Shown piece after piece: positions 6,217 through 45,340 of a stretch of 64,000 nucleotides of DNA. The notes below the pieces were generated by a model, which was not told the DNA's origin, did not search any database, and saw only the letters and a list, made by a program, of their open reading frames with translations. The stretch is from Mayamaea pseudoterrestris. Taxonomy: Eukaryota. Each line of letters begins with the position of its first letter. Position 1 is the stretch's first letter. The DNA is taken from NCBI GenBank assembly GCA_027923505.1, contig BROI01000001.1, forward strand, positions 806,001 to 870,000, given 5' to 3'. The translations under genes were made by a program, and so were the position numbers.

Positions 6217-6691
6217 GCTGCTGTTGTTGCTTCTCGCTTGCTCTTACAAAGTATAATTTTTATCTCTAGACTACTCTATTATGCGACTCCAGTCTTGGCT
6301 CTTTTAAGATATTCGACTCTCGTCGTCGCCGGATGCTTTTGTTTCGTGTTGCTCTTGGCAGGTTGATCCATTCGCTCGGAATCGAGTCGGATTGTTGTTG
6401 TTCCTGGATCATCATCATTCATCATGACGTGGCTGTTTGAATCTGGCGTCATGAATGCCCTTCGTGACGTGTGATAAGCAGGCACGTGAGTACACTTGGA
6501 GTCATAGATGAAACCAGCTCAGTCGATGTCGTAGAGCGACTCACAGCGTTCATTGCGACGCGTCAATTCGACCATGGCGACGCTATCACAAGACACAAGA
6601 CAGCACCACACAGGCGCAAATACTACAATCACCGATTACGAATAGCATATACACAGAGAATCCAATTTAATTTAGCTTTAACCGATAAATC

Positions 6692-12699: not shown

Positions 12700-13904
12700 A
12701 TGGTGAAATTTACAGGCTTTTGGTTCGTAATTACGCGACGACGTTCGATGGAGTGTCGTGAGATTGCTCATCTTGCAACAGGCATCTCGGCATCTCACTC
12801 ATTCGTCCTTGCCCATGCACGCCACTCTCATACCTCGTCCACAAGCTCACTTTTTCACTTCTAATCTGTAAATTACAGCACATATCCACATGGTGGCAAG
12901 GCAACGACTGGAATCTTTTTCGTCGTTGCGGCTGCACTTTCCGCAACTTGCTACGGAATTGCTTCGTGTCGGTTGCTTGTCTTGACGTTTGATGCAAGCG
13001 GAACGGGCAGCGAGGGTGGCGTTGGTTGCTTTGAAGAATACTTTCAAATTCACAACGATGTATCGAGTGGATGGGATAATTCGCAATCAACAACAAATAG
13101 TAATGCAACAAGCGCAGCAACGTGGTGTCAAGTCGGCATGGGCTTGTTCCAATGGATGCGACCAAACGAGATTCGTTCTATAGAAAGCAATAGCACAAGC
13201 AGCAGCGATTGGCAAGACGGCTACTGCGTGGGTTACCAACAAACAATGCTTGATTCACTTGGAGACGACGATCCCTTATTTCACGTGGCCCGCGGCCTGG
13301 GTATTTTTAGCGTTATACTTTCATTTGTCTTGCTGGGTTGGACCTTTGTCATGTCTTGCTTGGAACTGAATTGGATGCAGATATTTCTGCTGCGACTTTG
13401 TTGTTTGATGGCGAGTTTGACGAGTGAATTGTCCTTTTTAATGAAGAAAACCGCCATTTGCTCAAGCATGTTTGACGCTACAGCGAATTGCAAGCTTGAT
13501 CAAGGCGGACTTGCAATGGTAACCGCATGCATACTCTGGCTTATCGCACTTGTCATGAGCATTGTATTCATGGAGTCATCAACATATTGTCCACTTTGTA
13601 GGCGACGAACCAATGGCAAGGAGCGAGCAATAGAATCTGCCAAGACGACGCTAAAAGCTCGAGGGACAGTCTGCATGGGCATACCTATTCATTTGACTCG
13701 ACCGAGTCTTGGACGAAACCGATCAAGAAGCCCCGCGATAACGTAACAGTGGATGAAGCCACTAATGATGGCCAAATGGAAGTATACATAAGTAGTCGGC
13801 TGGATCGGATTGAGTGCCTGGCCGATGATGATGACGATCACGAGGAAGAGGAAGTAACAGCTCTACAGCATAGAAGGCTAGCAGCGCGAGAAGAAGCTAA
13901 ATAA
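12700..13904 (+). CDS. Four-TM Cys-containing membrane protein (claudin/tetraspan-like topology), with an apparent frameshift near 13730
   Basis: Exon 12700-12722 (MVKFTGF), GT-AG intron 12723-12878, exon from 12879 (C-TYPHGGKATTGIFFVVAAALS...). Four hydrophobic segments. The frame stops at 13746, but an acidic coding-like tail (VTVDEATNDGQMEVYISSRLDRIE...EEAK*) continues in another frame to 13904. Confidence 0.65.
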
Positions 13905-29249: not shown

Positions 29250-31073
29250 TCAGTCTTCCAAAAACTCCGTCATGTTGGAAGCGCTCAAGTACATAGTCTT
29301 GAATATTTTGAAAAATTCTTGCTTGGTAACCCAAAATATGCCATCGTCCGCGACAACTGGATTAATCGCCTTTTTGATTTGAGGATAGCGCTTCCAGCCT
29401 GGACCATCGTCGTCAAACATCCCATCCTCAATCTCTCCCTTTCCCCAAGGATTGCGAACTTTGATGAGATCAATGCCAGATCCAGCCACGTTCTTTCGAC
29501 ATTCAATAACCGAGTACGCATGATTGTCAACCATGCCACCTGTGCTGTGCTTGTCGGAAGTCCCTTCCGTGCTCGCGCCCATGATATAATTGACCTTGTC
29601 CCACGCACACAGTTGCGCAAACATTTCATCCTGATTCAAATCCTTGTCTGCGTCGCCACCTCCACCAACACTTGGCCATGCCACCCGCCACATGCTTCCG
29701 TCGCAGTCATGCGGCGAGTTGGCATCGGCCGACCACGTTTTCGTATTTGGGTTGAACTTTGCATGGCATCCGTACTTGCCATTGGCATTGCGCTGAATCA
29801 TGTACTGCTCTCGACAACCGGTCATCATTGCCCACGCATGCGTGCACTGACCACCCGTAATCTTGTCCCAGCCGCCGCAGTGCGCGGCCAGTGCCTTTTC
29901 CAAGTAGCAGACCCATAGCTCGCCATCATCCGATGGTTGCGAGGCTAGTAAGCGACCGCTTCCGTCTGCCATGACGCACAGGCGCTCATCGACTTGTACA
30001 TTTACTTCCTTCCACGTTTTCAAATCCCATAGTGTAACGGTATACATGTTTGGTCCATCCAGTGGTCGCTGACTGAGTTGTGGCGTTTTGCGAAACAGCT
30101 TTTTAATGGCGCCATCAAACTCGGCTAGACTGCTAATTCCGGAAAGCATCCAGCAATTGCCAACGCTACCTTGCTTGATATCGGACGGATCAATGTCGCC
30201 AAACAGTTTCAAGTGCGGCGTGTCGCCGACTCCCATGCCGCGACCCGGCATGATTGGTAAATTCTGTTTCGAATGCAACTTGGTACGAACATGTGACATG
30301 TGATCCGTGTACTTGTCGCGAAACTTGGCTGGAAGTTCATTGTTGCCAAAGGGAGGAAGGCGCTGATACTTGTGCAGCAAGACTGTCATCCATCCACTGG
30401 AACTGACGCCCTGAGGAACGTATCCGTCGGTGCCGTCGCGATGAATGAGCGTGTATTGCTGCTGGTTGACTGGCCATTCTAGGCAACTCGTTTGGTAAGT
30501 GAGTGCAACATATTTTTCTGGTTGACTCTTAAAGGTTTGAATTCCTCTTTGTATGGATTCGCCCTTGACAAGCTGCTGCTGTCCAATGGATGAGTATTGT
30601 GCCGATCCAGCAAATTTTTGTTCGACAAGTTTCCATCGCGAAGAATCAGCCTTGCTGAACTGATTATTGTTGCTGCTGGAGGCAGAGTGTTTGCTGGGAG
30701 ACGGCTTGACATTTGCCTTGCTACTGCTGTTTCTTATGTTATTATTTGATTTGTTAGCCATTGGTTTGCTGCTCGATTTGTTGCTGTTGGACAGCTTTTG
30801 CTTCGAAGCAACTGTTTTAGGAGATTGTCGCTGCTGATGCTTTTTCATTTGACTGAGTGGAGGCGGCTTCGGCCGCTTATTGTTAGTCCTGCCATCTCTT
30901 CCTACATACTGCTTGGATGGAGAGACAGGAGAAGATGTCACTTGCGTCCTCGTGATGATTCTGGTTGTCTTGCCGCCGTTCTTGTTGGTCGCTGATGGTT
31001 TTCCGTTTCGAAAGTTCTGCGGCAGCCTATTCGAAGGTCGTGTCTGCGGCTCAGCACTCCGACAGTTTCCCAT
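29250..31073 (-). CDS. Calpain-family (CysPc) cysteine protease with MGNC N-terminus
   Basis: Catalytic triad motifs DIKQGSVGNCW, NHAYSV and VRNPWG; also ELWVCYLEKALA. Likely start MGNCRS at 31073, followed by a basic low-complexity linker. Confidence 0.92.
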   Translation of the reverse strand: MGNCRSAEPQTRPSNRLPQNFRNGKPSATNKNGGKTTRIITRTQVTSSPVSPSKQYVGRDGRTNNKRPKPPPLSQMKKHQQRQSPKTVASKQKLSNSNKSSSKPMANKSNNNIRNSSSKANVKPSPSKHSASSSNNNQFSKADSSRWKLVEQKFAGSAQYSSIGQQQLVKGESIQRGIQTFKSQPEKYVALTYQTSCLEWPVNQQQYTLIHRDGTDGYVPQGVSSSGWMTVLLHKYQRLPPFGNNELPAKFRDKYTDHMSHVRTKLHSKQNLPIMPGRGMGVGDTPHLKLFGDIDPSDIKQGSVGNCWMLSGISSLAEFDGAIKKLFRKTPQLSQRPLDGPNMYTVTLWDLKTWKEVNVQVDERLCVMADGSGRLLASQPSDDGELWVCYLEKALAAHCGGWDKITGGQCTHAWAMMTGCREQYMIQRNANGKYGCHAKFNPNTKTWSADANSPHDCDGSMWRVAWPSVGGGGDADKDLNQDEMFAQLCAWDKVNYIMGASTEGTSDKHSTGGMVDNHAYSVIECRKNVAGSGIDLIKVRNPWGKGEIEDGMFDDDGPGWKRYPQIKKAINPVVADDGIFWVTKQEFFKIFKTMYLSASNMTEFLED

Positions 31074-31364
31074 TGCATCAAAATAGCGCTGAATTGCGTC
31101 TCCTAGCACACTAGTTGCTTCGAGTGTATTGCTGGTGCAGATTATCCGATGCAGAATACACAAGGGTCATTCATGGTCAACACGAAGCAAGACCGAAATG
31201 CGCACGATTCGGGCTGACGAACAAGTGACATAAACGTAACCGAAACGTCCTTCTGTCTTTTCATTGCTGCTGAACTGACACGATCTTGTCGTTCCACCAT
31301 GAAGATGGTCAAAAATGCCCTGTTACTTGGATCCTCGCACTTTCTCGCAACTATTACTACCCCC

Positions 31365-32726
31365 ATGTCCGAAACAACCAAGGACAATAGAATCAATAAG
31401 AACAAAGAAGCTCTTGACAGCAGCAGCAGCAACTACTCAATTGCTATCATTCGAACGCTTCGATCTGCCGGCGTCAAGTTTCTTCGGTACTCGGCCACGG
31501 ATCTTTGCGGCAATGCTCGCTGCAAAGTAGTTCCTCTTGTCTATTTACACAAGAACCACATTTCCGTATCAAATGGGGTTTCCTTTGCATCGGCTTGCTT
31601 TGGAGGCTTACCTTCCTATGCGGATTGCATCATACCAGAAACTGGCTTGACGGCAGCTAGTGGCAGCGTCAGGCTGGAACCGGCCATGGAAACGTTACGG
31701 ATCCTTCCCTATGCGCGTCAATCGGCTCTGGTCATTTGTAACCTTGTCGATACTGCAACCGGACAACGCAGTGAGTATTGTTCTCGAAGCGTCTTGCAAA
31801 AATTGTTGCAAATATGCAAGGAGATACACAATATTGGATTTAACATTGGAGCTGAGCTTGAATTTACCTTGTACAATCTTGCCGGCGAACCAGTCGATGG
31901 ATGTCACTACGGCGCGAGCACTACATTGAATCAACAGCAATCATTCATTTCTGATGTTTACGAACAGCTAGCCGTGCAGCAGGACGTTGACATTGAGCTG
32001 CTCCATTCCGAGTCGGCGCCAGGCCAATTGGAGCTTGTATTGAGGCACCAGGACGATGCGGTTCGTCTCGCGGATTACGCATTTCTGGCCAAGGAAACGA
32101 TTATAGCGGTAGCGCATCAGCATCAGTTAAAAGCAATCTTTTTGCCAAAGACGGACGCGAATCAAGCTGGAAATGGATTGCACTTGCATATTTCCATGTA
32201 TAGCACGGAACCTGGTAGATTTATATCACAGGATACTAGAAGCTCCTTTTTGAAAGGCATTTTGCAGCAGTTGGACTCCTTGCTAGCCTTGACATTGCCG
32301 TCGATGAATTCTTTTGCTCGCGTCGGCCCCGGTTGCTGGACTGGTCACGACGCCTCTTGGGGCATGGATGACAAGGAGGCAGCGATTCGTGTCTTGTCAC
32401 ATGACTTTGAGCACTTTGAGTACAAGCTTTGTGACGCCAAGGCCAATCTCTACCTTGCATTGGCGGGAATACTCTGGGCTGGTATGGTTGGAATTAATTA
32501 TCGCTTGAAACTTCGGCCATCCCGCCAAGATACAAATCTTGAAGCGGTGGCGCAGCTTCCCACGAGTCTTTTGCAGAGCCTGAACTTTTTGAAAGATTAT
32601 GACTTGCTTTCACATGAAATGTCGCCGGCGTTGCTCAAAGCGTACATTGCCTTGAAGCGGGCCGAAGCAAAGCACGACGAAAAGTTGACGATGAGCGACC
32701 AATTGAATCTGGCTCTTACTGAATAA
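31365..32726 (+). CDS. Glutamine synthetase-like protein (GSI-type, FluG/NodGS-like or gamma-glutamyl-amine ligase-like)
   Basis: DLCGNARCK, GAELEF, HSESAPGQLE, FLPK, AGNGLHLHIS, WGMDDKEAAIRV, HFEYKLCDAKANLYL. Start is either 31299 or 31365. Confidence 0.88.
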   Translation: MSETTKDNRINKNKEALDSSSSNYSIAIIRTLRSAGVKFLRYSATDLCGNARCKVVPLVYLHKNHISVSNGVSFASACFGGLPSYADCIIPETGLTAASGSVRLEPAMETLRILPYARQSALVICNLVDTATGQRSEYCSRSVLQKLLQICKEIHNIGFNIGAELEFTLYNLAGEPVDGCHYGASTTLNQQQSFISDVYEQLAVQQDVDIELLHSESAPGQLELVLRHQDDAVRLADYAFLAKETIIAVAHQHQLKAIFLPKTDANQAGNGLHLHISMYSTEPGRFISQDTRSSFLKGILQQLDSLLALTLPSMNSFARVGPGCWTGHDASWGMDDKEAAIRVLSHDFEHFEYKLCDAKANLYLALAGILWAGMVGINYRLKLRPSRQDTNLEAVAQLPTSLLQSLNFLKDYDLLSHEMSPALLKAYIALKRAEAKHDEKLTMSDQLNLALTE

Positions 32727-33053
32727 AAGGCTGGGTAATGACTATTACAAAGGATTCTGGTGATACATACTTGTAGCAACATCCTGGCTGGAGTACAGTA
32801 TAACGACCTGCGACAAGGGAGATTATCTCCCTTGACCTGCGACTGGGCCAACTTTCACATCACACGACTTGAGATGTCGTATGCGACTCGTAGCGCGTTT
32901 GAAAAAGCATTTGCACCACAAAACGCGGGCCAGTGATTCGACCATGGAATTGGATTGCCGGTGCTCAGTAGCTTTCTTCTATTGCGAAAAGACAAAATCA
33001 AAAATTCAGCAAAGTCATCCTAATTGTTAAGCGTATAAAGAATCGTAATCGCC

Positions 33054-36000
33054 ATGTCGCGCTGGGGACCTTCCAAGTCTGACCGTGATGCTGCTGCATC
33101 TACGCACGAAGGTGCGGTTGATGCCACGGCTACGGATGCAGCATCCTTGGATCCAGCATCGCTTGCTTCCAGTGAGACTGCTGAAACAGATAATTTTGCT
33201 GCTGCTAATGAAACTAAGGATAACGTCGACGAGTCTGGTGATGCGAATGGCGATGACCTTGTCGATACGGATGATGAAGGAACCGATGCGAAACATCACG
33301 ACGACGACAATGACTCTTCCAAACTATCAAAGGACGAGTACGACGACTTTGAAACCATTGTCAAGGTCGAATGGGGTCCCCGCCGCGGCGAGGACGGCTA
33401 CGATACCGATCAGGAGCTTGCGCCGCGTCCCCGTCAAACGCCCGAGGAAACGTGTCAGTGCGCTCGCGCGCCCGGCGCCTGCAGCGACTATGGTTGTCTA
33501 CTGTTTGCCTGTCATGAGGAATGTCGAGCCAAGTGTCCGGCGGGAGAGTACTGTGGCAATAAGCGACTGCAGCAGCCGTGGCTGTTTCCGAAACTAAAGG
33601 TTGTAGACTGTGGGCCAAAGGGTAAAGGATTGGTGACGCGCGACGCTATTAGCAAAGGACAAGTTTGCGCTGAATATGTTGGACGAGCCGTCAAGGCGAA
33701 TAAACTAAAGCAACTATTTCGGCGATATCAACTTGATCGACGCTTATATATCATGGCGCTCGATGAAGGCGTTTACTTGGATGCTCGGCAGCGAGGAAGT
33801 ATAGCGCGTTATGTCAATCATTCGTGCAACCCGAACTGCAAGGTTGAACGATGGAAGGTCCGAGGCGTTGTGAGAGCCGCTGTCGTTGCTTTGAGGGAAA
33901 TCAAACCAAATGAGGAACTTTCCTTTGACTACAAGTGGGAGCGGAAGCGGGGACGAGCGCCAACAAAATGTCACTGCGGTGAATCGAACTGTCGAGGCAC
34001 GTTGGAACTGGCAAAGTCACTCGATGAGGCAAACTTGGAGCAGCAGCTACAGGATCAATGGCTTCGGACATCGCTCACGGATGCGTCCATTGTCAATAGC
34101 ACCGTTCGTGTCTTTTCCAAGGAGCATGATGAATATTTTTTGGGAGAAGTAACCGGATATGATTCCGATATACAGCAGCATTCCATTCTCTACCGACACG
34201 ACATGAATGAAGCATGGGAAGATTTGCGCAAGGAGGACTGGATGATCCTTGACGCCAATGTCGACAGGAGCGATTTTTTGATTGCTAAAAAGTCGAACCG
34301 CAAGCGAAGGCAGTCTCCCACGGAAGGTCTCATTGCGGCGCCACCGTCCAGTGAGGAAGTCCTTTCATTCAAGAACTATTTATATATACAATCTCCAGTG
34401 CATCAAATCCTGCAAGCAAAGCATTATTTCGAGCAGTGCGAGCGAAATCACGTAGTTCATATTCATATTCAACAGCTTTGCAAGCCGCCATTGCCGCCTA
34501 ATATGAAGGATCCGGACGACGTGGCAAAGTATAAGGCATTGGAGTCATCGGCAGATGGAACAGTTTGGAAATTGTCCATTTCTGGATCGGGAGTCGGTGA
34601 AGCCTTTGTGGCTTTGGAGAAGCAAGTGCTCTATTTGGACAAGAAGTTTGAGCAGGATTATGCGGCCGGGGGTAGTCTTGCTGCATCCTTGACGAATCCC
34701 GCAATATCCGCAGCCACTGCGGCGGCAACACTTGCTTCGGAGCAGCAAAGTCGACATCAAATAATTTTTCCGCGAGAGATCAGCGATCACCTGAAGCGAG
34801 ACCTTCCGGCACTGCGCGCCCGGTGTCGAACGGTCAATTTAAACATCTTTCCGTCGGCTTCTGTCTCAAAGCAGTTTGGCCGTTTGGTTCTCGATGGGGC
34901 GCTTGAGTCTGACATTGCTTCAGCCAAGGAAACCATTTGGAATGCACTGCTGGTGCTATGTGTCGAAGCACAAGCGCCATTAGCTCCAAACAAAATGCCA
35001 AAGAATCTTGGATGCTACGCGGGTGAGCTAACAGCTGCGCAGTTTCGATTGCTGAGCAGTGGCAATGAAAGAGACAAGAGCGAATTGGCGGAAAAGAACC
35101 GTCTACGGATGGATGCATGCGAGAATTTACGGAAACTTTGTCCTTTTTTTGTATCGTTCGAAAATACGCAGCAATGTACAGTTTGGGTTCAAGCAGATTA
35201 CGATAAGGGTCGCATTAATTCGAACAATCAAATTGTAAGCACTAGCAATTCGAATAGTCCGAAGCACTTCTTCATTGGCTATTCGCCGAAAGAGATACCA
35301 CGTTTATGGACATTAATACAGACGCGTGTATCAGAGCTCTCGCGAGGTGTCAAATATTTACACCTAGGGATGGATCGGGTGTATCAAAAGCTTATGATGA
35401 TGAATGGCAACAAGTTTTTTGACTTTGTCATGCGTGTTGCGTCTGTCAAGTTGGATATTGATCCAATGACAGGAGATCATATACGGATAGACGGTAGATT
35501 GTCGCCTCATGCAACTGTTCCGCCCGAGCTTTCGTCGAAGACGGAACCAGAACGTGCTTTGCTCGCCGAAGAAGTGATTATGCTGCAGATTGAAATGTAC
35601 CGCGACCATTGTATCCGCGAGCAGAGCTGGATATTTGGTCGAGATTGGTCACTAGTTGCTAGTGCTGTGCCTGTCGTTGTTGAGACTAATGCGTCTGGAT
35701 CGGCTTCACTTGGACAGCTGGACTTAAAATCAGCGGCGCAGGGTGCCACGGACATTGCAGACACCATTGCGATGTTGGGGCTAGATCCGAGCGTGGCTGC
35801 GCATGCAGCCATTATCTTGTACCGTTTTGTTGTTGCCAATACCGAAACATCGATCAAAATACGAGACGCTGTGCTTGCATGTATCTATCTGGCTAACAAA
35901 GCCCAAAAACTGCACAATTGGAAGCGCCTTGATCAGGTTGTCAAGGTGGGTTTTGAAGCCATGTACAAATCAAAATTTGATGAGAATCAAGACATTGAGA

Positions 36001-38489
36001 AACTTTCCGAAAAGGTTCTCGCTACGGAAGCTTTTATTCTCGAATCGCTGGACTATGATATCTTTTGGCGTGGTGTTGACTGGATCCGTTCAGCAGCAAT
36101 TGGTGCTGGACAATTGCAACCAAGACAAATAAACGAAATATTCGAATTTATGTTCACTGGTCCAGTCCTTGGATGTGGTCATGACTTATGGCTACGATAC
36201 GGATTTGAATATGTCTTTGCTGTCGCCTCCGGGCTTCTCCAAATTGAATCGAAATACTTATTTTCTGCTTTATCACTAATTCCTCTAAAAGTTTCGCGGG
36301 CGGCAGAGCTACTTGTTGAGTCGTTGAAGTTGAACCGCTCACCCGGCAAAAGTTTAAAGCATCACCATTTGTTAGAGGGCAACAAATGGGAGCTTGAGAG
36401 GCGACTTCCGCTTTTGAAACAGGCATGCATTGATGCCATGACATCATCGCTTCAGCAACGAGCTTATGATTCTACTATAATATCGGCGGCGGACCAGCGA
36501 TATAAACTCATTGGGCAGCAATGCCAACAATGGTATGTGATTTCGGGCATCCCCACGCAGCAAATGCGAGACTTTATAATGCCACATCTTGCCAGAGTAT
36601 CGGCAGAAAGCAACTGTACCATCTTTATTGAACGGGGCAGTGCTGATGGCATGGAGGACATATTATTTGCGGGCACGTGGAGAGCTATATACCTCGCCGA
36701 CAACCTCTTGCGACTCGCTTTAAACGACACCTTGACATTGCCCGTCGTCACCAGGGGCTCGGAATCGCAGCAAGACAACGCAAAAATTCAGTCAAAGACT
36801 GCACCCGGGCGCATTGGACGGAAGGAGTTGTTGATTGATAGTAAGTGGGAAGGCACGAGTTTGTCGAAGATTTGCAACGAGTCCGTGGGCGATCGCTTTC
36901 TTGGCGGAAAAAGCTTTGCAGCTGGTCGAGTTACTGTCGGAAGTCTTCGTAATTCCGGCCTTCGTTGGTGGCTTTCTAAGGAGCTCAGCTTTTGCCCAAG
37001 TGGTTCATTGATCGACACGTTTGTGGTTCGTTCATCAGACGGTTTAGCGAGCCTCGGCCAGTTCGCAAGGGCTTTGGAAAGCGAGTCTGCGAAGTTTCCC
37101 ATGCTTTCCAGTACTGCTTTTAACGATACCCACAGCCAAATGTCATACCCTTTTGCTGCAGTCTCATCACAAGAATGGCCATCCGCCAAAGTCGCAAAGA
37201 TTGAGGCTGCGAAGGCTTCCAAAGTAAAAGGGGCAAGTGGTCTACCGGTGGCTGGCATATCAGCGGCGGCGCTGCAAGAAATGCAGCTGTTGACTCAGCT
37301 ACATTGCCTGATCACCGGCCCGTTGGGGCATCCGAATTTTCTTATCCCTTTTGCAATTGCCGCTACTGTTAAGAACAACAGTGAGTTAGATGCTAAGGCA
37401 CCAAACAGCATTATGACACATCCCATTGACCTTTTGAATGATCCAATGCACTCACTGTTTCAAACGCGCGACGAGAGTGCCAAAAAGTCTGGCTGTACTT
37501 CTTCAAATCAACCACATCTTCTTTTCCAACCGACACCGTTTCGCTTGCAACGTTTTCTTTCGAAGAAATACAACCGCGGGGTCGAGGATCTTCGGTCACA
37601 TTCGGCTCTAGTCGCATCATGGTTTCATGATTTGCTTTCGGCTGTTGTTCATTGTCATTCGAACAGCATTATTCTTCGAAATTTTGATTTGGATGAAATT
37701 GCCGTAGACCAAACCGGAACGCTCAAATTTACAAGTCTTTACCGGTCCAAGCTGCTGGAGAGTAAATCGCGAGAAATGATAGCCGGGAAGGTTCATGCCG
37801 AGCTGTTAAAGGCTGCACGGGCGAAGAGCAAGGAAAAGGGCAAGAAAAGTAAATGCGACGACGACGACAAGCCTAGTCCGTATACACCTCCAGAAATTCT
37901 GCTTGGCTGCCCATTGCACAGTCGAGAGAGCGATATATGGACCGTCGGCTGTATCTTAGCGCACTTGCTGCTCAACAAACCTCTTTTCGTCGGTGATGAT
38001 CGCGCGAAGCTTTTTGAATCCATGGCCAAGTTAGTAGGCACTCCTCGCGAAGATAACTTTGAGCTGCTTAAAAAATTTCCACACTTTCCGAAAGTGAAGA
38101 AGAATTATAAGCGCGGTGTCGAAAAAGGCTTGGAGCACATGCTGAAAGACGACGCTTCCGAGTACGAAAAGGCAATTGACCTTCTTGGTCGCATGCTGCA
38201 CTTGGACCCAACGAAACGATGCACTGCTGCGGAAGCCTTGGGTCACGAGTACATGGCTGACTACATGGAGAAGACCAATACAAGTAGTTTTCGCGAGCAA
38301 TACGTGAAGCAGTGGATGACCGTCAAAACCACGACACTCAAGCAAGCGAAAGGACTTGCTGACAGCTCACAAACCAAGCGCAAGCCCATGCTGATGGATT
38401 CGCGGGCAACCGAGGATGACGACGATGACTTGTACGGAATTGACGACTTGATGGCCGAACAGCCAAGCAAGCGACGAAGGAATGACTGA
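33054..38489 (+). CDS. 1811-aa multidomain protein: AWS-SET-postSET methyltransferase + Tudor-like + KH-like + cyclin fold + CDK-like (pseudo)kinase
   Basis: One uninterrupted ORF. AWS (EC...CPAGEYCGNKRLQ), SET (KGKGL, EYVG, LDARQRGSIARYVNHSCNPNC, EELSFDY), postSET (KCHCGESNCRG). Cyclin box (AAIILYRF...LACIYLANKAQ...LATEAFILESLDYDI). CDK-like region (GISAAALQEMQLL...HPNF, HCHSNSIILRN, YTPPEILLG, SDIWTVGCILAHLLLNKPLF, DLLGRMLHLDPTKRCTAAEALGHEY). Confidence 0.9.
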   Translation: MSRWGPSKSDRDAAASTHEGAVDATATDAASLDPASLASSETAETDNFAAANETKDNVDESGDANGDDLVDTDDEGTDAKHHDDDNDSSKLSKDEYDDFETIVKVEWGPRRGEDGYDTDQELAPRPRQTPEETCQCARAPGACSDYGCLLFACHEECRAKCPAGEYCGNKRLQQPWLFPKLKVVDCGPKGKGLVTRDAISKGQVCAEYVGRAVKANKLKQLFRRYQLDRRLYIMALDEGVYLDARQRGSIARYVNHSCNPNCKVERWKVRGVVRAAVVALREIKPNEELSFDYKWERKRGRAPTKCHCGESNCRGTLELAKSLDEANLEQQLQDQWLRTSLTDASIVNSTVRVFSKEHDEYFLGEVTGYDSDIQQHSILYRHDMNEAWEDLRKEDWMILDANVDRSDFLIAKKSNRKRRQSPTEGLIAAPPSSEEVLSFKNYLYIQSPVHQILQAKHYFEQCERNHVVHIHIQQLCKPPLPPNMKDPDDVAKYKALESSADGTVWKLSISGSGVGEAFVALEKQVLYLDKKFEQDYAAGGSLAASLTNPAISAATAAATLASEQQSRHQIIFPREISDHLKRDLPALRARCRTVNLNIFPSASVSKQFGRLVLDGALESDIASAKETIWNALLVLCVEAQAPLAPNKMPKNLGCYAGELTAAQFRLLSSGNERDKSELAEKNRLRMDACENLRKLCPFFVSFENTQQCTVWVQADYDKGRINSNNQIVSTSNSNSPKHFFIGYSPKEIPRLWTLIQTRVSELSRGVKYLHLGMDRVYQKLMMMNGNKFFDFVMRVASVKLDIDPMTGDHIRIDGRLSPHATVPPELSSKTEPERALLAEEVIMLQIEMYRDHCIREQSWIFGRDWSLVASAVPVVVETNASGSASLGQLDLKSAAQGATDIADTIAMLGLDPSVAAHAAIILYRFVVANTETSIKIRDAVLACIYLANKAQKLHNWKRLDQVVKVGFEAMYKSKFDENQDIEKLSEKVLATEAFILESLDYDIFWRGVDWIRSAAIGAGQLQPRQINEIFEFMFTGPVLGCGHDLWLRYGFEYVFAVASGLLQIESKYLFSALSLIPLKVSRAAELLVESLKLNRSPGKSLKHHHLLEGNKWELERRLPLLKQACIDAMTSSLQQRAYDSTIISAADQRYKLIGQQCQQWYVISGIPTQQMRDFIMPHLARVSAESNCTIFIERGSADGMEDILFAGTWRAIYLADNLLRLALNDTLTLPVVTRGSESQQDNAKIQSKTAPGRIGRKELLIDSKWEGTSLSKICNESVGDRFLGGKSFAAGRVTVGSLRNSGLRWWLSKELSFCPSGSLIDTFVVRSSDGLASLGQFARALESESAKFPMLSSTAFNDTHSQMSYPFAAVSSQEWPSAKVAKIEAAKASKVKGASGLPVAGISAAALQEMQLLTQLHCLITGPLGHPNFLIPFAIAATVKNNSELDAKAPNSIMTHPIDLLNDPMHSLFQTRDESAKKSGCTSSNQPHLLFQPTPFRLQRFLSKKYNRGVEDLRSHSALVASWFHDLLSAVVHCHSNSIILRNFDLDEIAVDQTGTLKFTSLYRSKLLESKSREMIAGKVHAELLKAARAKSKEKGKKSKCDDDDKPSPYTPPEILLGCPLHSRESDIWTVGCILAHLLLNKPLFVGDDRAKLFESMAKLVGTPREDNFELLKKFPHFPKVKKNYKRGVEKGLEHMLKDDASEYEKAIDLLGRMLHLDPTKRCTAAEALGHEYMADYMEKTNTSSFREQYVKQWMTVKTTTLKQAKGLADSSQTKRKPMLMDSRATEDDDDDLYGIDDLMAEQPSKRRRND

Positions 38490-38570: not shown

Positions 38571-39332
38571 CTACATCATTCTTACTTTGTCAATATATCT
38601 ACGTAGATACCGCAGCTGTCCGAATGCCTGTTATGAAGAGGCAAGAGTAAAAATCAATGAGGAAGTGTGAGTACATTCATGAAGAAACGAAAGACACTGC
38701 TTTCAATTCACCATACGCACCACAATCAAGACAAGCACGAGCTCGGCAACGCTCCAAGCCACAACGTAGCTAAAGGTATCCTCATGTACCATTCGATGTT
38801 GAGCTTCCCTCGCCTTGATGTAGTCATAGAATTCTCCCAGTTGCGTCATGCCAGTGCCCAAATCTCCAGCAAGCTGCATCCATTCTTCCGCAAAGAGATT
38901 GGTTTCAACTAACACTGGTGGAGCTTCCGATACAATTGGCCGTAGGTGAAACGAAAACTTGACAGTCTGCGATGGCAGTGTTTCATCGGCTGCAACATTT
39001 TGGAAGCAAATCCAGTAAGCGTGCACGGTGGAGCCTGGCAAGTCGATGCGAAACGTGTCCTTGGCTATGGACTTTGACTCGTAAAGAGCTTTGTCCTGGT
39101 AATCCAAAATTAATACATTGAGAGAAGAATCTGATGATGTAGGTATATTGCTGTTGTCTTGCTGTGATACGACTAGCTCAAAGCTTCCTTGCAGCATTCT
39201 TTGCTTCGATGTGCGTATTTGAAAGCATTCTTCATCCGACGCACCGAGTCGAAGAAATAGAGGGGTTGATGCTGATTTTCGTACATCAAAAACAAGGAAA
39301 TAGGTTGCTATGATTAGTATCCTTCGAGTCAT
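38571..39332 (-). CDS. p24/emp24/gp25L (TMED) family GOLD-domain protein
   Basis: Exons 39332-38721 and 38627-38571 (GT-AG intron). Signal peptide, EECF and YWICFQN, coiled coil YIKAREAQHR, TM, and tail AFGQLRYLRRYIDKVRMM*. Confidence 0.85.
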
Positions 39333-39655
39333 TGTCGTTCTCAAGTGGAACAGGAAAGTCGGTGCACGCATAATAAATGCGCCATGGTCGAATTCGTGGA
39401 TGGTCGCATTTGTCAGTGTCGTACTGGTGCTGCCTCGTATTCATTGTCGCTTAGACACCTAGCGACGCGACTCCGCGAGCGAGTCGGACTTGCAACGGTC
39501 ACGTGTTTTGCCTCATTGCAATTCAAGCGTCAATTTACCGTTGCTTTCGACCATGAGATTGCAGCACGCCGAGGCGGACAGCAGCTAAACCTGACATTGC
39601 ATACTACAGACGAGCAGCACTAAAGAAAAGTTGCTGCACGCAATATAGAAGAGCC

Positions 39656-42600
39656 ATGGATCCTCCGGTATCAGCGCGATCACATTCGCCGTCGACCATG
39701 CTGACGAGTCCCGATGCTGCTGCACCAACCCCCAAGCAATCCAAGCGGCGCGTTCCTCGCTCGCCTCGTCGAAGCTTGAGTCCCACCAAAATGTCAAGCT
39801 TGGACAAGGCGAGAGCAAGTCCTATTCGCATGTCAAGTCCAGATGTTGCAGCATCAGACATCAAGGGACGCAGCAGTCCATTGACAACCACACCGCGGAG
39901 CTCCACGACGACAGTCGAGCGACGAGACTCTCCAGCTCCATCACTGACAGTTCCAGATCTCCGCAGTAGTAACAAAAAGACTGAAGGGAACAACAATGCT
40001 GAACTATCGACGAGCAAACCGAGTCGTCCATCGACTCCAGCAGTTGCACGAAGTACGCCGAGTCGATCGGCAAGCAAGGAACTGACTCCGCCACCGACAG
40101 CGTCTAGCAGCAACACGCCAGCGACTGGCAACAACAACAGCAACTCGCAGTCTTACCTCAACCGCAAAGCGCACAAATTTAGTAGTTTGAAAAAGAAGAA
40201 GCAAGCTTCGGCGGCGGCTGGCGCTGCATCGTCTGGTCCATCATCTCCTGGATATTTCATGAGCAAGCTCTTTTGCCACTCGCTTCCGGACGATCGAAAC
40301 GATCAGAATACAACGACAGCAACTGAAACTTCAGCATCGGACGCATCCAAGGACAATGGAGCTGCAGATGAGCCAGAGCAAGGCTGCTTGTCCATTGCCT
40401 TTACGCAAGCGGCCGAGTCTTTGCGACTGGACAGTGAACGAACGGTGCGGCGCAACATACAAAAGGGCTTGTCGCAGGCAATGGAAGCGTCGACCGACCT
40501 GCATGTTTGCGAGGAGGTTTCATCGTCGTGTACGGAGATGCAGACGGACGCCAAAATGAGTTGTCAGGAACGAACGAGTGGAACGTGCGGACCGGTGAAA
40601 AATGGCAGCCCCAAGGCGCTACTGAACGAACAAGAGATTCATCAGCATCGCGAAATGGATAGCTTGACAAACAATATGACCATGGATAGTCAGGAAGAAG
40701 ATGGAGACGACGACAATGATGATTATGCCGACGATGAGTATGACGATGAGGCGGAACCAGCGGCTCTCCCAATTACAAAAGTTGCTTCGCTCTCCAAGCA
40801 GGAGCAGCAATCGTCGCCTACCAAGATGCTGCCATCTCCAACCAAATCAGCAACGTCCTCCCCTCGGCGGATGTCGTCGCCAAAAGTTGCAATTTCGACG
40901 CAGGAGCTGCAAGCGACTTCCTTCATTGCTTCCTTGACGCTACAAAAGAGCGAGGAGGAAATGGGCCGCGAGGAAGAGGAGGATGAATGGGAGACGACGG
41001 TTCAAGAAGCGCGGGACGATACAGTCGCAAAGGACACGGTCGTTGTTGTTGCGCCAAAGACTCCCTCCCCCAAGAACCTTCCGTCTTCTCCGGATCGGCC
41101 AGACGACGAGGAACAGGAGGATGCCATTACGATTGCGCGGCAGTCTTCGTCGCAGAGTCAAAGCTTCAGACAGAGCATGTCAGATCGGTCATCGCCCAGC
41201 AATGACTTTGACGATGACGACTTTTTGCCGAGCGACTTCAAGGCAACAAATAGCAGCAATCCAATGATGACCATTTTAAGCAATGTCATGAGCGCCGTGA
41301 GCCCGAAAGCCAGTCCAGCATCCACTAACAATCAACCTGGTTCACCCGCAGTAACCTTTACTTTGACTGAGGTACAAGACAAAGTTGCTGCCGCCGTAGA
41401 AGCTGCGCACGAGCAATGGGAAGCGGCAACGTTGGAGGACTTGGAATTTCAGCACAACGTCAAGCTCGCCATGGCGGTCAATGAGCATCGAGAGGAAGCG
41501 GAGCGTACTCTCCAGCTGCACACGGATCAGCTAAAGGAGGAGCATGATGCGGAAATGACAGCGCTATCCGAAACTTTCCAAGCCAAGTTTCACGACCTTA
41601 AAAATCAGGCAGTCTCCTCAAAGCAATTGGCGCGACAACGCGAAGAGGAAATGTATGAAATGGAAGCGGAATTAAACACGCTGCGCGAGACATCTACAAC
41701 TCATTCGGAGCTGCAAAGCAAGTATGCCGAGCTTGAGAAGCAGATTTTTGAAAAGTCACTCGCACACAATGCTACGTCGGAAGAATTAACCAAGGAGCGC
41801 AAGACAATTCTAGAGCTCAAGGCCAAGGGCCGGCAAGACTTGCTGGCACTGGAAAAAGAGAAGGATCAGCAGGTGACTGCTTTTCAACGCGAAATAACCG
41901 CCTTGGAAGATATGATACGCAAGTTAAACGCTGACCTTGTCGAGTCCAAGCATGCAGTGGAGTTTGAATTGAACGAACACATTGAAATTGTTAAGAACGA
42001 TTTGCAATCGGCTCAGCACCACCTTAAAGACACACAATTCGAGCTGGACAAGTGCCGCGAAGTGGTGGCGGACCGCGATATGATAATTGCGAAGCTTGAA
42101 GATGAACTTTCGGTCAATATGATTGAACTAACGGCGTGCAGGCGAACTTTGAGCGACAAGAAGGAGCAGATTGAAGCGCTTCGTGAGCAGCTCAACGACA
42201 CCATGAGTACTGCGCCTGATTTCGCACATTACCCGCAACTGGACCAGCTACAGGAGTCTTTAAACGAGAAGCATGCTCAGGTTGATATTCTCGCTTGCAA
42301 GCTTGCCGACAAGGAGAATGACCTTGGCGAAGCAAAGCAACAGCTGGCCGAAAAGCAGTCCCGTATCGACAATCTCCAGCAAGAGCTTGCTATCAAGGAA
42401 AGTGAAGTCCGCAACTCTCCTATAAAGCTGCGACAAGAGATGGCAGGTCTTCGACGTGAGAATGATCAGCTGGAACACGAGCTCAGGGTGCAGAAGAAAC
42501 TAGCGTCGCAGGATCTGCACCTATCGTCATCGGAGGATTCTCAAATGTCAACAGCATCGAGAGCGTCTGGCATTACGCCACCTCGACCAAGCATATTTTC

Positions 42601-45340
42601 TTCACCGACTCAAGGCACACCCTCCAAGCGACAGTGGCAACGCCAACCCAACATGAATTCTACTTTGAAGGAAAAGGACGACCAAATTGCCGCTCTTGAA
42701 AAAGATCTAAAAGAGATCCGCAAGAAGCTGCACGACGCAGAAGACGAGATGTTATGCATTAGTTGTGGCGGAATGCTTTCGCCGAGGAAGAAGGTGCGCT
42801 TTTTCGGTGAAACGGCAACTGACGAGAAAGAGGATGCCATTGTTCCTGAAAATCCGGCAATAACTGAAGAGCTTCTAAACGACGAAGGGTCCCATTCAAG
42901 TGTAGCCATTACGAATTTGCAGCAGCGCATTGAAGGCAAGATTCATTCTGTCCGAGCTAACATGCGCAAGAGCAACGAAAGTGATGCGAGTCGCTCTGAT
43001 ATGGTCGACATTGAGGCGCTCAAGTCTAAAATATGCGTCTTGGAACAACGATTGTCTGAAAAGGATATGGAGCTGGCCGCAAAAGTTTGTGAGATGACGG
43101 CGCCAGAGCATTCCACCGAAACAGATGCACTAATCAAAGCTCGGCAAGAATTGGCAGATCTTAAAAATCAACAAAAGGACATGATTGCTGCAAAGGAACA
43201 TGAGATCAATGAGCTTCGACTGCGTCTGATGTTCGTCCAAGAGTCGCTTGCTGAAAAGGAGAAAGAAATGTCCGCGCTGCTGGCTCGGACACAGCTACTT
43301 CGGATGTCTGACTCGTTTAGCCATGCATCCTCCCCGGCTGGCCAAACTCATTCAGCCAAATCGCGTACTCCCGCATCAAACATCAACGATAACCTCCGAG
43401 ATAGCATTGAACTGCATGAGAAAGAGAAGGAAGCCTATCGGCAACAAATTGCTGTCTTGGAAGAGCAAATTGAGACGCTGACAATGGGGCACGAGAAGTC
43501 ATTTGCTGAATTGAGACGCGCGAGTGAACAAGAACTTGTCGAACTCAAACGAGAAATGGAAATGCGTATTGAGAAGCACATGCGTACTGAGCGCGAGCTC
43601 AAAGACACCCTTTCTTCAGTTGATTCTGCAGATAAAGAAGATCTCATCGACAAGATTGAGCAACTTGAAAGTGCAAAGAAGGCAGATCGAACGGGTGGTC
43701 TCCGTGAAGTTCAAAAGAAGGAGGAACTTTTGCAACGCATCTTGCTCCTGGAGAAGAAGGAACGCGAACTGGCCAACGAACACGAGTTCAATCTCCAGCG
43801 GGTACGAGAATCCAGCGAACAGGAGATCCGTCGGCTGCGAAAGGAAATCGAAAGGACTCGGACCGACAGTCAAGAAAGAGAGTGGCAATTGCAGCAAGCC
43901 ATCTCAGCTACTGCCTCGTTTGAGAAGGAAGAGCTTCTGCAGACAATCGATAAGCTCGAAGCCAAATTGGAAAGCGAACGGAATTGCAGCGTGCTTGTCA
44001 AGATGAAGGTTACGTCGCTCGAAAAAGAAGCAAGATCTATTGCTGAAGCCCACCGAGATGAGCTTTTAGAACACACCAACCGTTTTCACGCTGAAGTGGA
44101 TTACCTACGAAAGCAACTTGCTGAATTGCATGGGATCGAAGATGCCATGCAAATTACAACCAATGATCGCGATACCCTCGAACAAGAGCTCCGGCAAACA
44201 AAAGAAGCCCTTGAACATTGCCAGACTGACTATCACGATCGCTTCAAACAGATGCAGGCGTTGCACGAAAAGGAAGTTGCGGATCTTCGTATGGAAATGA
44301 ATGCCGACATCGAGAAGACAGAAAACAGTGCAATGGAATCAGTAGAAGAGCTGGAAAGCAAAATTATAGAACTCAAAAGCAAGCTGGCCGCAGCAGACGC
44401 TGAGACTAAACAGATGAAGGAAGAACTCGACAGCACGAAGATATCCGCCAACGAACAGCTACAGAAACAGGAGAACGAATTGATTGGCCTCAGAAACAAG
44501 GTTACTTTAGATGCACAGGCACATCAAGCACAGATACGTGCTTTAGAACGCCAACTCGCAAACAACTCTGAAGTGCTAGCTGACCAATTAAAAACCAAAA
44601 CGAAAGAATATGGTACCAAGATTGATGCACTCCAAAAGCGTTTGGACAACAAGGACGCAGCACTCGTCGCATTGGGCGACCAATTGGCGGAGGCTAAAAG
44701 TCGATGTAAAAGTTTGGAAGATTCAGTGCTTTTGACAAAAAAGGAGCTTGAAGGGAGCAACGATTCAGCTAAAAAAGCTTTAAATGAGCTCGCTACAGTC
44801 GCGTCTGAATTGGCGGATCTCAAGGCAGCCCACGAACAATATATTGCAGAATGTATCATTGCGACAGAAGTTGCCTGCGACGAAGCTCGGCAAGAGACGA
44901 TACAACATGCCGAAATCCAGTTTAAGCAAGCCAATCAGCTGTACATCAAACTCAAGAAGCAGTACGATCTCTCCAAAAAGAAGGTTGAAAATCTCGAGAA
45001 AGATTTGCAAGTGACCAAGGGACGATTGGAGACCGCTGAAGCGACAGAAGTGAAGTGGAAAAAGGAAGTGGCCGAGCTGAAGCAATCGAAGTCCAAGATT
45101 GAGTCTGACGCAGCGATTAAAGCGAAGGAGTATCGCCGCGAAATGGAGCGACTTCTCACGGCAGCCGAAGGTTTTGAAAAGAAAACAAAGGAAGCAGAAG
45201 CGACAAATCGGACAAATCTTAAGAAGCTTATTCATGCCAATTCCGAGAAGGACAAGCTTCAAAAGGAATATATCGAGATCAAGAATGTGTGCGAGGAGCT
45301 TATGTCCATGGTGGAGGCACAGCAATCGGGGTCGCCATAG
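39656..45340 (+). CDS. 1894-aa protein: Ser/Pro-rich disordered N-terminus and long coiled coil with a TACC-like C-terminus
   Basis: Single long ORF with many SP motifs, then E/K/L heptads. The C-terminal EYIEIKNVCEELMSMVE resembles the end of the TACC domain (family call tentative). Confidence 0.8.
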   Translation: MDPPVSARSHSPSTMLTSPDAAAPTPKQSKRRVPRSPRRSLSPTKMSSLDKARASPIRMSSPDVAASDIKGRSSPLTTTPRSSTTTVERRDSPAPSLTVPDLRSSNKKTEGNNNAELSTSKPSRPSTPAVARSTPSRSASKELTPPPTASSSNTPATGNNNSNSQSYLNRKAHKFSSLKKKKQASAAAGAASSGPSSPGYFMSKLFCHSLPDDRNDQNTTTATETSASDASKDNGAADEPEQGCLSIAFTQAAESLRLDSERTVRRNIQKGLSQAMEASTDLHVCEEVSSSCTEMQTDAKMSCQERTSGTCGPVKNGSPKALLNEQEIHQHREMDSLTNNMTMDSQEEDGDDDNDDYADDEYDDEAEPAALPITKVASLSKQEQQSSPTKMLPSPTKSATSSPRRMSSPKVAISTQELQATSFIASLTLQKSEEEMGREEEEDEWETTVQEARDDTVAKDTVVVVAPKTPSPKNLPSSPDRPDDEEQEDAITIARQSSSQSQSFRQSMSDRSSPSNDFDDDDFLPSDFKATNSSNPMMTILSNVMSAVSPKASPASTNNQPGSPAVTFTLTEVQDKVAAAVEAAHEQWEAATLEDLEFQHNVKLAMAVNEHREEAERTLQLHTDQLKEEHDAEMTALSETFQAKFHDLKNQAVSSKQLARQREEEMYEMEAELNTLRETSTTHSELQSKYAELEKQIFEKSLAHNATSEELTKERKTILELKAKGRQDLLALEKEKDQQVTAFQREITALEDMIRKLNADLVESKHAVEFELNEHIEIVKNDLQSAQHHLKDTQFELDKCREVVADRDMIIAKLEDELSVNMIELTACRRTLSDKKEQIEALREQLNDTMSTAPDFAHYPQLDQLQESLNEKHAQVDILACKLADKENDLGEAKQQLAEKQSRIDNLQQELAIKESEVRNSPIKLRQEMAGLRRENDQLEHELRVQKKLASQDLHLSSSEDSQMSTASRASGITPPRPSIFSSPTQGTPSKRQWQRQPNMNSTLKEKDDQIAALEKDLKEIRKKLHDAEDEMLCISCGGMLSPRKKVRFFGETATDEKEDAIVPENPAITEELLNDEGSHSSVAITNLQQRIEGKIHSVRANMRKSNESDASRSDMVDIEALKSKICVLEQRLSEKDMELAAKVCEMTAPEHSTETDALIKARQELADLKNQQKDMIAAKEHEINELRLRLMFVQESLAEKEKEMSALLARTQLLRMSDSFSHASSPAGQTHSAKSRTPASNINDNLRDSIELHEKEKEAYRQQIAVLEEQIETLTMGHEKSFAELRRASEQELVELKREMEMRIEKHMRTERELKDTLSSVDSADKEDLIDKIEQLESAKKADRTGGLREVQKKEELLQRILLLEKKERELANEHEFNLQRVRESSEQEIRRLRKEIERTRTDSQEREWQLQQAISATASFEKEELLQTIDKLEAKLESERNCSVLVKMKVTSLEKEARSIAEAHRDELLEHTNRFHAEVDYLRKQLAELHGIEDAMQITTNDRDTLEQELRQTKEALEHCQTDYHDRFKQMQALHEKEVADLRMEMNADIEKTENSAMESVEELESKIIELKSKLAAADAETKQMKEELDSTKISANEQLQKQENELIGLRNKVTLDAQAHQAQIRALERQLANNSEVLADQLKTKTKEYGTKIDALQKRLDNKDAALVALGDQLAEAKSRCKSLEDSVLLTKKELEGSNDSAKKALNELATVASELADLKAAHEQYIAECIIATEVACDEARQETIQHAEIQFKQANQLYIKLKKQYDLSKKKVENLEKDLQVTKGRLETAEATEVKWKKEVAELKQSKSKIESDAAIKAKEYRREMERLLTAAEGFEKKTKEAEATNRTNLKKLIHANSEKDKLQKEYIEIKNVCEELMSMVEAQQSGSP

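Follow-up and report, generated by a model that had tools for sequence, protein, structure and literature searches.

Gene structure at the locus

Here we describe a gene of the diatom Mayamaea pseudoterrestris that lies in a window of 64,000 nucleotides (nt; contig BROI01000001.1, positions 806,001 to 870,000 of the forward strand) and whose single intronless open reading frame (ORF) joins a histone-lysine methyltransferase domain of the SETD2/ASH1L/NSD class to a Tudor domain, about five KH-like modules, a double cyclin fold and a pseudokinase of the cyclin-dependent kinase (CDK) type (Table 1). An earlier reading made from the letters alone (the sequence-only reading) had seen three of these parts, the SET, cyclin and kinase domains, all of which proved real, but had overlooked the Tudor domain and the KH-like modules.

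Table 1. Coordinates of the gene, its parts and its neighbours, as positions of the window (aa, amino acids; VIA and Foldseek are structure aligners)
Feature	Residues (aa)	Position (nt)	Strand	Basis or remark
Whole gene	1811 aa + stop	33054..38489	+	Intronless single ORF, ATG start
N-terminal acidic, poorly conserved region	1-100	33054..33353	+	Mean column identity 0.11-0.24 over aa 1-90
AWS-SET-postSET, SETD2/ASH1L/NSD class	133-317	33450..34004	+	PDB phmmer, Pfam, motifs
Tudor domain	341-399	34074..34250	+	Model fold match; directly after post-SET
Three alpha/beta modules	442-540, 569-638, 653-762	34377..35339	+	KH-like strand-helix order by DSSP; no GXXG
KH type I-like domain	763-859	35340..35630	+	VIA; degenerate GXXG loop
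Double cyclin fold, transcription-cyclin-like	860-1111	35631..36386	+	VIA, Foldseek, Pfam in members
Two linker helices and fifth beta-alpha-beta-beta-alpha module	1112-1223	36387..36722	+	DSSP, model mf4ce382729c8, pLDDT 83-94
CDK-like pseudokinase, both lobes	~1257-1763	36822..38342	+	VIA, Foldseek, PDB phmmer
PSTAIRE-equivalent C-helix GISAAALQEMQLL...GHPN	1401-1428	37254..37337	+	Alignment
Degenerate catalytic loop and DFG	1541-1562	37674..37739	+	HRD = LRN, catalytic-loop Asn position = Glu, DFG = TSL
C-terminal long helix, acidic run, terminal basic patch KRRR		38283..38486	+	Helix at model residues 874-913, then pLDDT <50
Glutamine synthetase gene		31299-32726	+	Neighbour, unrelated and separate
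Calpain-type protease gene		29250-31163	-	Neighbour, unrelated and separate
emp24/GOLD protein gene		38703-39371	-	Neighbour, unrelated and separate

The stop-free frame of 1811 aa that had been read at 33054-38489 (+) stands, with an ATG start and no internal stop in 5433 nt; by simple arithmetic, at 61/64 for each codon, 1811 consecutive sense codons would arise by chance with a probability of about 1e-38. The source gene call (P0002, 1578 aa) uses the same frame and begins at an internal methionine, M234, within the SET domain. It is too short, and the longer start is the correct one because M1 and the SRWGP that follows it are conserved in orthologues. Public contigs from four runs of a single study, which behave as DNA in that genes and spacers are covered alike, carry two in-frame allelic indels inside the ORF (3 nt at 33194 and 12 nt at 33297), and since these lengths are 3 and 12 nt they are a small sign of coding constraint.

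Could two or three adjacent genes have been read as one ORF, or the assembly be chimeric? The shorter source call and the existence of two proteins without the SET part (P0204 and P0183) would fit such an artefact, which we nevertheless find hardly credible: the frame is free of stops, the linkers between its domains are conserved, and the same domain order recurs in about 40 proteins from independent assemblies. It recurs as well in an MMETSP transcriptome contig of Thalassionema nitzschioides (P0032/P0053, 1801/1823 aa), in which one mRNA runs across all domains. At the DNA level a metagenome locus of another species (L001, 423..5897) is one uninterrupted ORF of 1824 codons, the genes on either side in the window are unrelated and clearly separate, and four other matches that seemed to lack the SET domain have full-length, SET-bearing cluster mates.

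The SET methyltransferase domain

The AWS-SET-postSET unit that the sequence-only reading had placed at ~33450-34000 is found there. With phmmer against the PDB, aa 133-317 match SETD2 (E 1.5e-29), ASH1L (8e-29) and NSD2 (1.7e-28), and NSD3 too, within a range that extends to 1e-26; because the E-values are nearly equal, the SETD2, ASH1 and NSD branches of KMT3 are not separable for this protein. Pfam recognises SET at E 1.9e-19, and AWS taken alone stays below its cut-off (17.6 vs 23.3 bits). Throughout the 36 aligned members of the family, the AWS cysteines, N255-H256-S257-C258, F291-D292-Y293 and the post-SET cysteines C306, C308 and C313 are invariant. To judge by these residues the domain looks catalytically competent, and lysine 36 of histone H3 (H3K36) is its putative substrate.

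The domain by which Set2-type enzymes usually reach RNA polymerase II (Pol II) was sought in the same scans. SRI (PF08236) gave no match at E<=1 in the protein or at E<=0.01 in 26 members, bearing in mind that HMMER filters may hide very weak matches, and WW gave no Pfam match at these same thresholds in the protein and the 26 members. A different targeting device is plausible because neither domain was found.

The cyclin fold and the pseudokinase

Most of what follows the methyltransferase was interpreted on two structure models, an AlphaFold2 model of aa 320-1115 (m3212f461a835; predicted local distance difference test score, pLDDT, 79.1), built on an alignment with 35 homologues in which the window's fragment stood on top and full-length homologues beneath, and a model of aa 871-1811 (mf4ce382729c8; pLDDT 77.4). 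These were compared with known structures by Foldseek and, independently of it, by VIA, for which the stated noise level is Z 7-8. Both folds announced by the sequence-only reading have clear structural counterparts, at Z 16-18 for the cyclin part and Z 22-24 for the CDK part.

The cyclin box that had been placed at ~35730-36330 falls inside a larger unit, aa 860-1111, whose best VIA match is cyclin T1 (Z 18.2, 225 residues aligned, root-mean-square deviation (rmsd) 3.5), ahead of cyclins L2 (17.8) and K (17.4), Ctk2 (16.6), A2 (16.5) and C (16.4). The alignments with T1, L2, K, A2, C and B1 take in 203-233 residues, that is, both tandem cyclin folds. Foldseek, too, has cyclin T1 at the head of its list (E 2.9e-5, TMt 0.61), with T2, L2, C, B1 and K next. 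In Pfam the protein itself reaches E 0.008 for Cyclin_N over aa 905-1003 (16.3 bits, below the cut-off of 23), and 20 of the 26 members scanned match at E<=0.01, the best at 1.6e-6; the relatives P0194 (30.7 bits), P0092 (27.1), P0108 (25.6) and P0100 (23.6) lie above the cut-off. The box motif reads LACxFLANKAQK, and K949, K952 and, in the fifth helix, E992 are invariant; we take these residues to resemble the Lys/Glu pair with which cyclins contact their CDK.

For the kinase part, where the sequence-only reading was right about a CDK-like fold at ~37250-38250 but set its start about 430 nt too late (it lies at ~36822), VIA gives CDK3 first (Z 23.6, 274/287 residues, rmsd 2.6), then CDK7 (23.0), CDK9 (22.9) and CDK11 (22.4), with other kinases at 21.5 or less, and the best 50 Foldseek matches are all CDKs, at E of about 1e-11. 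Pfam Pkinase (E 6.8e-18) reaches no further than the C-lobe (aa 1518-1734). Two inserts interrupt the fold, a large one between beta2 and beta3 and a Lys/Asp-rich one in the activation segment. The string GISAAALQEMQLL...HPN, which had been likened to PSTAIRE, is indeed the C-helix (aa 1401-1428): G1401, S1403, A1406, Q1408, E1409, H1417 and G1425-H-P-N1428 are invariant in 36/36 members, with the pattern S-P/A-A-A-L-Q-E.

The earlier call of a pseudokinase is strongly supported by what has become of the catalytic residues. In all 36 members the beta3 lysine is absent (AVSxQ), HRD has become [LMFI]-R-[NTSA] with no catalytic Asp, the catalytic-loop Asn position holds Gln, Glu, Ala or His, and the DFG motif starts with Thr, Gly, Ala or Ser, so that its Asp is missing; the protein of the window has LRN for HRD and TSL for DFG. 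All four positions are likewise replaced in the distant relatives P0194, P0201, P0183 and P0100. Because all four catalytic residues are replaced, we class the domain as a pseudokinase and not as a CDK. If the kinase were active in a non-canonical way, like WNK or CASK, the protein would be a bifunctional methyltransferase-kinase, and the Gly-rich G1284-G1285-K1286, with its invariant lysine ahead of the N-lobe strands, together with the invariant C-helix Glu1409 and HRD Arg1542, speaks for this. Yet the four positions are lost together in 36/36 members and in the four distant relatives, and no active kinase is known to lack the catalytic Asp as well as that of DFG, which makes continued phosphorylation very improbable.

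Other parts of the domain are well kept. The C-helix, the dead catalytic-loop region, the APE motif, the subdomain IX Asp and the subdomain XI Arg are invariant or nearly so, and the C-helix, the degenerate catalytic loop and the APE/subdomain IX-XI residues rank among the best conserved parts of the protein; pseudokinase surfaces are therefore under selection, which fits a retained binding surface. Beyond the kinase fold, the terminal KRRR patch may serve as a nuclear localisation signal. The distant relative P0194 had CDK12 as its closest kinase in a search that admitted only proteins of 1084-3451 aa and so favours the long CDK12; this result was not used.

The dead CDK and cyclin could also be a decoy or sensor for the CDK-activating kinase (CAK), CKS, CDK inhibitors or cyclin-docking motifs, tying the activity or stability of the methyltransferase to the cell cycle. 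CDK1, CDK2 and CDK3 are among the best sequence or fold matches, and the C-lobe of CMGC type, at which CKS binds CDKs, is well conserved. The cyclin fold, however, is slightly nearer to the transcription cyclins, and any link to CKS, CAK or CDK inhibitors is conjecture; we regard such a sensor as improbable. The part consulted of a study of Phaeodactylum tricornutum (Huysman et al. 2010, PMC2872877) lists seven 'hypothetical CDKs' whose cyclin-binding motifs diverge and several of which are regulated with the cell cycle, which speaks for the sensor; the orthologue of this gene may be one of the seven.

Tudor and KH-like modules

Directly behind the methyltransferase, aa 341-399 align over 58/58 residues with the Tudor domain of Arabidopsis RDM15 (7de9_A; VIA Z 11.8, rmsd 0.8, 26% identity), and Foldseek gives a TMt of 0.95 for the region, so that in the model the segment is a five-stranded barrel of Tudor type. 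W336, H376 and W388 are invariant, Y380 and W396 nearly so, and Y361/F362 and Y369 are conserved. The fold is common to aa 341-399 and the RDM15 or PTM/DIR17-like family, with Pfam PTM_DIR17_Tudor matching the relatives P0100, P0114 and P0194 weakly, below cut-off. Tudor is a fold of methyl-lysine readers, and that of RDM15 reads monomethylated lysine 4 of histone H3 (H3K4me1).

Between the Tudor domain and the cyclin fold lies a series of small modules, of which aa 763-859 are the best defined: MEX-3C KH2 (Z 9.7), Nova-2 KH3 (9.2) and KSRP KH3 and vigilin KH14 (both 8.7) head VIA matches in the range 8.4-9.7, and the modelled beta-alpha-alpha-beta-beta-alpha order is that of a KH fold, at scores that are modest and near the noise level. 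Its GXXG position reads NGNK, GGxF or SGxF in diatom members and is degenerate, unlike that of canonical type I KH domains such as those of Nova-2, KSRP, MEX-3C and vigilin. KSRP KH2-KH3 matches model residues 333-533 at Z 9.0, and of the three modules before aa 763 this match covers only the third; the first two modules may be called KH-like on their topology. The fifth (aa 1159-1223), between cyclin and kinase, again has a KH-like strand-helix order in the model. The ESM Atlas gave no usable match for aa 1112-1365 or aa 440-860. A clearer view comes from the distant relative P0194, in which AWS, SET and a Tudor-like domain are followed by zf-CCCH (E 3.5e-6), a canonical KH_1 (E 6.7e-13, IGKNG), Cyclin_N and the pseudokinase; canonical KH_1 also occurs in P0197. 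The KH_1 of P0194 sits just before the cyclin domain, and its equivalence to aa 763-859 depends on an approximate alignment. From this canonical KH domain and CCCH finger it follows that the middle of the protein descends from modules of RNA-binding type.

These modules might themselves aim the enzyme. Nascent RNA and a histone mark already in place could be what the KH-like array (joined in distant relatives by a CCCH finger) and the Tudor domain use to target it, and the cyclin/pseudo-CDK part, instead of recruiting, would be a scaffold or allosteric regulator of the SET domain or a platform for other proteins. Both the closeness of the Tudor domain to an H3K4me1 reader and the type I KH fold of modules conserved along the family argue for this, as do the canonical KH_1 and zf-CCCH of P0194; against it stand the degenerate state, in the diatom proteins, of the GXXG loop that holds nucleic acid and the fact that the four KH-like modules other than aa 763-859 are placed largely by topology. 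As a full account of targeting we consider it doubtful.

Distribution and conservation of the family

A word-indexed search of 5.8 billion proteins at E<=0.001 returned 51 matches, of which 40 (P0002-P0041) are relatives with 61-98% query coverage and 33-61% identity (100% for the gene's own call, P0002). In precomputed Pfam annotation 38 of the 40 carry both SET and Pkinase, and seven carry Cyclin_N as well. For the alignment of 36 members we omitted the short own call and four shorter or partial proteins (P0019, P0023, P0024 and P0039). Mean identity per 30-aa window is 0.35-0.80 across aa 91-1800, linkers between domains included, except at aa 541-570, where a disordered linker joins the first and second KH-like modules and the value drops to 0.24; low conservation is confined to the first 90 residues and a few linkers. 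Besides T. nitzschioides, the labels of further members name Cyclotella meneghiniana and Proboscia inermis, and since the named members include these diatoms the family spans radial centric to pennate forms.

With the SET domain and kinase left out of the query (aa 320-1115), a full HMMER scan of 1.84 billion representatives found no more than 80 proteins at E<=0.001, with 36 at E<=1e-30; about 25 are 1400-2200 aa long, the rest being fragments. Further out, hhalign joins P0194 (1972 aa) to the family at E 7e-81 and P0201 at E 4e-64, in both cases from SET through kinase. As judged from these searches the family is narrow. P0104, P0105, P0108 and P0149 were considered as SET-less relatives and rejected as truncated gene models, since their cluster mates of 1711-2401 aa carry SET. 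A search of loci with SET-domain patterns gave generic SET genes at 78 of 80 loci; only L001 and L007 cover the family. L007, on a 120-kb metagenome contig, is a distant relative (34% identity, residues 131-1736) whose gene at 5213-13884 is split between the ORFs 5213-7813 and 11290-13884, and introns or frame changes are therefore present in that lineage.

Other features of the window

Upstream of the ORF, in the 328-nt spacer that separates it from the glutamine synthetase gene, a contig of run X1 differs by two skips or replacements of 73 and 106 nt (region 32800-33048) and by a 4-nt insertion at 32762; these are allelic variants in what is probably the promoter. Directly downstream stands a second very long ORF (39656-45340, +; 1894 aa; strong AT skew, 0.22-0.24), for which Pfam gave no match at E<=0.001. 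Farther away, at 15385-22721, an array of about 7.3 kb repeats a unit of 216 bp (72 codons) in tandem, with a sub-period of 108 bp, GC 0.60 and a GC skew of about -0.35; the long 216-bp arrays in it are 98-99% identical. Several frames of either strand are open, with ORFs of up to 2473 aa, and the array is probably either the gene of a Pro/Ser-rich repetitive protein or a repeat collapsed in assembly.

Discussion

We suggest that the protein couples an N-terminal AWS-SET-postSET domain, which would be an active writer of KMT3 type, to an apparatus of some 1500 residues that would be non-catalytic and would serve in targeting or regulation: a Tudor reader of methyl-lysine, a degenerate chain of KH-like modules of nucleic-acid-binding kind, and a C-terminal cyclin/pseudo-CDK unit. 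In this last unit the double cyclin fold of transcription type, the small linker module and the pseudokinase would move as one rigid body. The model scores point the same way, as the predicted template modelling score (pTM) is 0.80 for aa 871-1811, despite three folded units and about 140 disordered residues, and 0.47 for aa 320-1115, which holds the Tudor domain, KH-like modules and cyclin; cyclin, linker module and pseudokinase are therefore predicted as one rigid body and the rest as a flexible chain. Because the kinase cannot phosphorylate, the fused pair is most likely a binding module, one that would place or gate the methyltransferase. To this reading in its general form, an active KMT3-type writer with a targeting or gating apparatus in which a dead cyclin-CDK holoenzyme acts as binding module, taken jointly with the gene being a real chromatin enzyme of diatoms that has more distant relatives in other protists, we assign a probability of roughly 0.6.

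What the unit might hold is a separate and more tentative matter. The leading candidate is docking on something that a transcriptional CDK normally engages, such as the carboxy-terminal domain (CTD) of Pol II or a CDK partner, which would then take the place of the missing SRI domain. The sequence-only reading had likewise proposed a replaced recruitment domain, and the absence of SRI and WW and the presence of a cyclin-CDK module in the same chain agree with it, but the Tudor and KH-like modules offer other or added targeting. In its most definite form this proposal makes the dead unit a receptor for the CTD or phospho-CTD and hard-wires H3K36 methylation to elongation. Recruitment of Set2/SETD2 depends on CTD phosphorylation by kinases of the Ctk1/CDK12 type, the best cyclin-fold matches are the CTD-kinase cyclins T1, K, L2 and Ctk2, CDK9, CDK7 and CDK11 are among the best kinase-fold matches, and the dead catalytic cleft region is still conserved; all this favours a CTD receptor, as does the lack of SRI and WW in Pfam. 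Its appeal is nonetheless one of analogy, cyclins A, B and C come within about 2 Z of the transcription cyclins, CDK3 and CDK1 are the nearest kinases by sequence, contacts between CDKs and their substrates are usually weak and transient, and other routes to chromatin are at hand in the Tudor and KH-like modules. By analogy, a ligand of this kind may be supposed and a coupling of methylation to elongation is plausible; the CTD receptor as such we hold to be possible, if on balance unlikely. A bolder generalisation is that, in diatoms and probably a wider protist group, H3K36-type methylation would be tied to transcription through the relic of a CTD kinase, in which a dead CDK and its cyclin, welded to each other and to the methyltransferase, would bind the Pol II CTD or a CDK partner with the help of a Tudor reader and a KH array of RNA-binding descent; this is speculative and finds us doubtful.

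Several observations weigh against an active writer aimed by a dead transcription-type cyclin-CDK pair, in whole or in part. As to subfamily, phmmer against the PDB brings the kinase closest to cell-cycle CDKs (CDK3 8.1e-20, CDK1 7.5e-19, then CDK12 1.4e-17), the transcription cyclins lead the fold matches in the model by less than 2 Z over cell-cycle cyclins, and the cyclin region alone, searched by sequence against the PDB, gave six rows, all cyclin K, at a non-significant E of 1.1. As to assembly, cyclin docking on the C-helix in cis may be supposed, indirectly, from the high pTM of the C-terminal half. Complex predictions made without an alignment for the kinase (aa 1240-1790) with the cyclin (aa 885-1115) scored 0.52, 0.34 and 0.47, and one control scored 0.38, so that they tell neither for nor against docking. 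Some VIA alignments (those of CDK9, CDK8 and a fungal CAK kinase) start within the cyclin part, at model residues 114-121, as might be expected if a cyclin helix lay next to the N-lobe; since such ranges give no more than their two end residues, this weak hint was not used as evidence. As to targeting, the Tudor and KH-like modules could explain it by themselves. As to the link between writer and pair, P0183 (1493 aa, from a 12-member cluster) and P0204 (a 1217-aa MMETSP ORF) align only from the KH-like modules to the kinase, without SET and Tudor; they may be SET-less paralogues, isoforms or truncated models, and SET-less products or isoforms may accordingly exist. Finally, the activity, substrate and partners that we propose, and a location that would presumably be nuclear, are all read from sequence.

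If the preferred reading is right in outline, the gene offers a concrete candidate for an apparently active KMT3 enzyme in which the Pol II-binding domain is absent and a dead cyclin-CDK pair with reader-type modules stands instead, so that histone methylation may here be aimed in a new way. For pseudokinase biology it would add a well-defined case of a fused cyclin and CDK kept for something other than phosphorylation. Under the bolder generalisation it would further represent an independent evolutionary solution to co-transcriptional chromatin marking and a rare instance in which an entire cyclin-CDK holoenzyme has been reused for binding. Knock-outs and domain deletions are feasible, since gene editing works in model diatoms. 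Built as it is from known kinds of domains, the protein should be of interest to specialists in chromatin and in pseudokinases.

Comparison with known systems

The sequence-only reading knew of no characterised protein with this architecture, and none is characterised; a fusion of methyltransferase and inactive CDK-like kinase had, however, been noted in Phytophthora in 2010. In the sections consulted, Judelson & Ah-Fong (2010, PMC3019232) describe P. infestans PITG_14137 as an inactive CDK-like kinase to which a histone-lysine methyltransferase is fused N-terminally and report orthologues only in P. ramorum and P. sojae. Compared by that description, PITG_14137 shares the two outer domains and their order with the diatom protein, and the account makes no mention in those sections of the cyclin, Tudor and KH parts, all three of which the diatom protein has, nor of a study of function. 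The NCBI proteins P0200-P0202, of about 1400 aa with SET and Pkinase, may be of the PITG_14137 type. A full-text literature search on the architecture, in which papers were seen in part, yielded only this one as relevant, so that the outer domains have been paired once in print, in another lineage, and the present family extends a one-sentence observation to a larger group and more domains. The parts consulted of two reviews of stramenopile chromatin genes (PMC3145265, PMC13076208) do not mention the fusion, and a 2023 paper on diatom SETD2 homologues (PMC10421102), as far as consulted, reports extra conserved motifs IV-VII, which it leaves unnamed, and H3K36 methylation as a mark of transcribed gene bodies in diatoms too. 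In the literature searched there is no description of the full architecture, its breadth among diatoms or any function.

SETD2/Set2, ASH1L and NSD1-3 have in common with the diatom protein the AWS-SET-postSET core and its NHSC, FDY and post-SET Cys residues. By Pfam scans the diatom protein is without their SRI, WW, PWWP, PHD and bromo parts and, unlike them, carries Tudor, KH-like modules, a cyclin fold and a pseudo-CDK instead.

The integral-cyclin CDKs of oomycetes and ciliates unite CDK and cyclin in the absence of SET. The consulted text of PMC3019232 reports four CDKs that carry cyclin domains C-terminally and in which an Asp has become Asn, absent from Thalassiosira pseudonana and P. 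tricornutum. These proteins (e.g. PITG_21617) resemble the diatom protein in holding CDK-like and cyclin domains in one chain and in replacing the Asp of subdomain VIb (Asn there; Asn, Thr, Ser or Ala here), but on this partial account they place the kinase first and the cyclin C-terminally and have no SET domain, whereas in the diatom protein the kinase follows the cyclin and has also lost the Lys and the DFG Asp.

Closest in fold are the two-part kinases of transcription: P-TEFb (CDK9-cyclin T1), CDK12/13-cyclin K, CDK11-cyclin L2 and yeast CTDK-1 supply best or near-best matches for both halves, with CDK3 (Z 23.6) and cyclin A2 (16.5) matching about as well. Where pairs of the P-TEFb type are two polypeptides with an active kinase, however, the diatom protein holds both partners in one chain, with the kinase dead.

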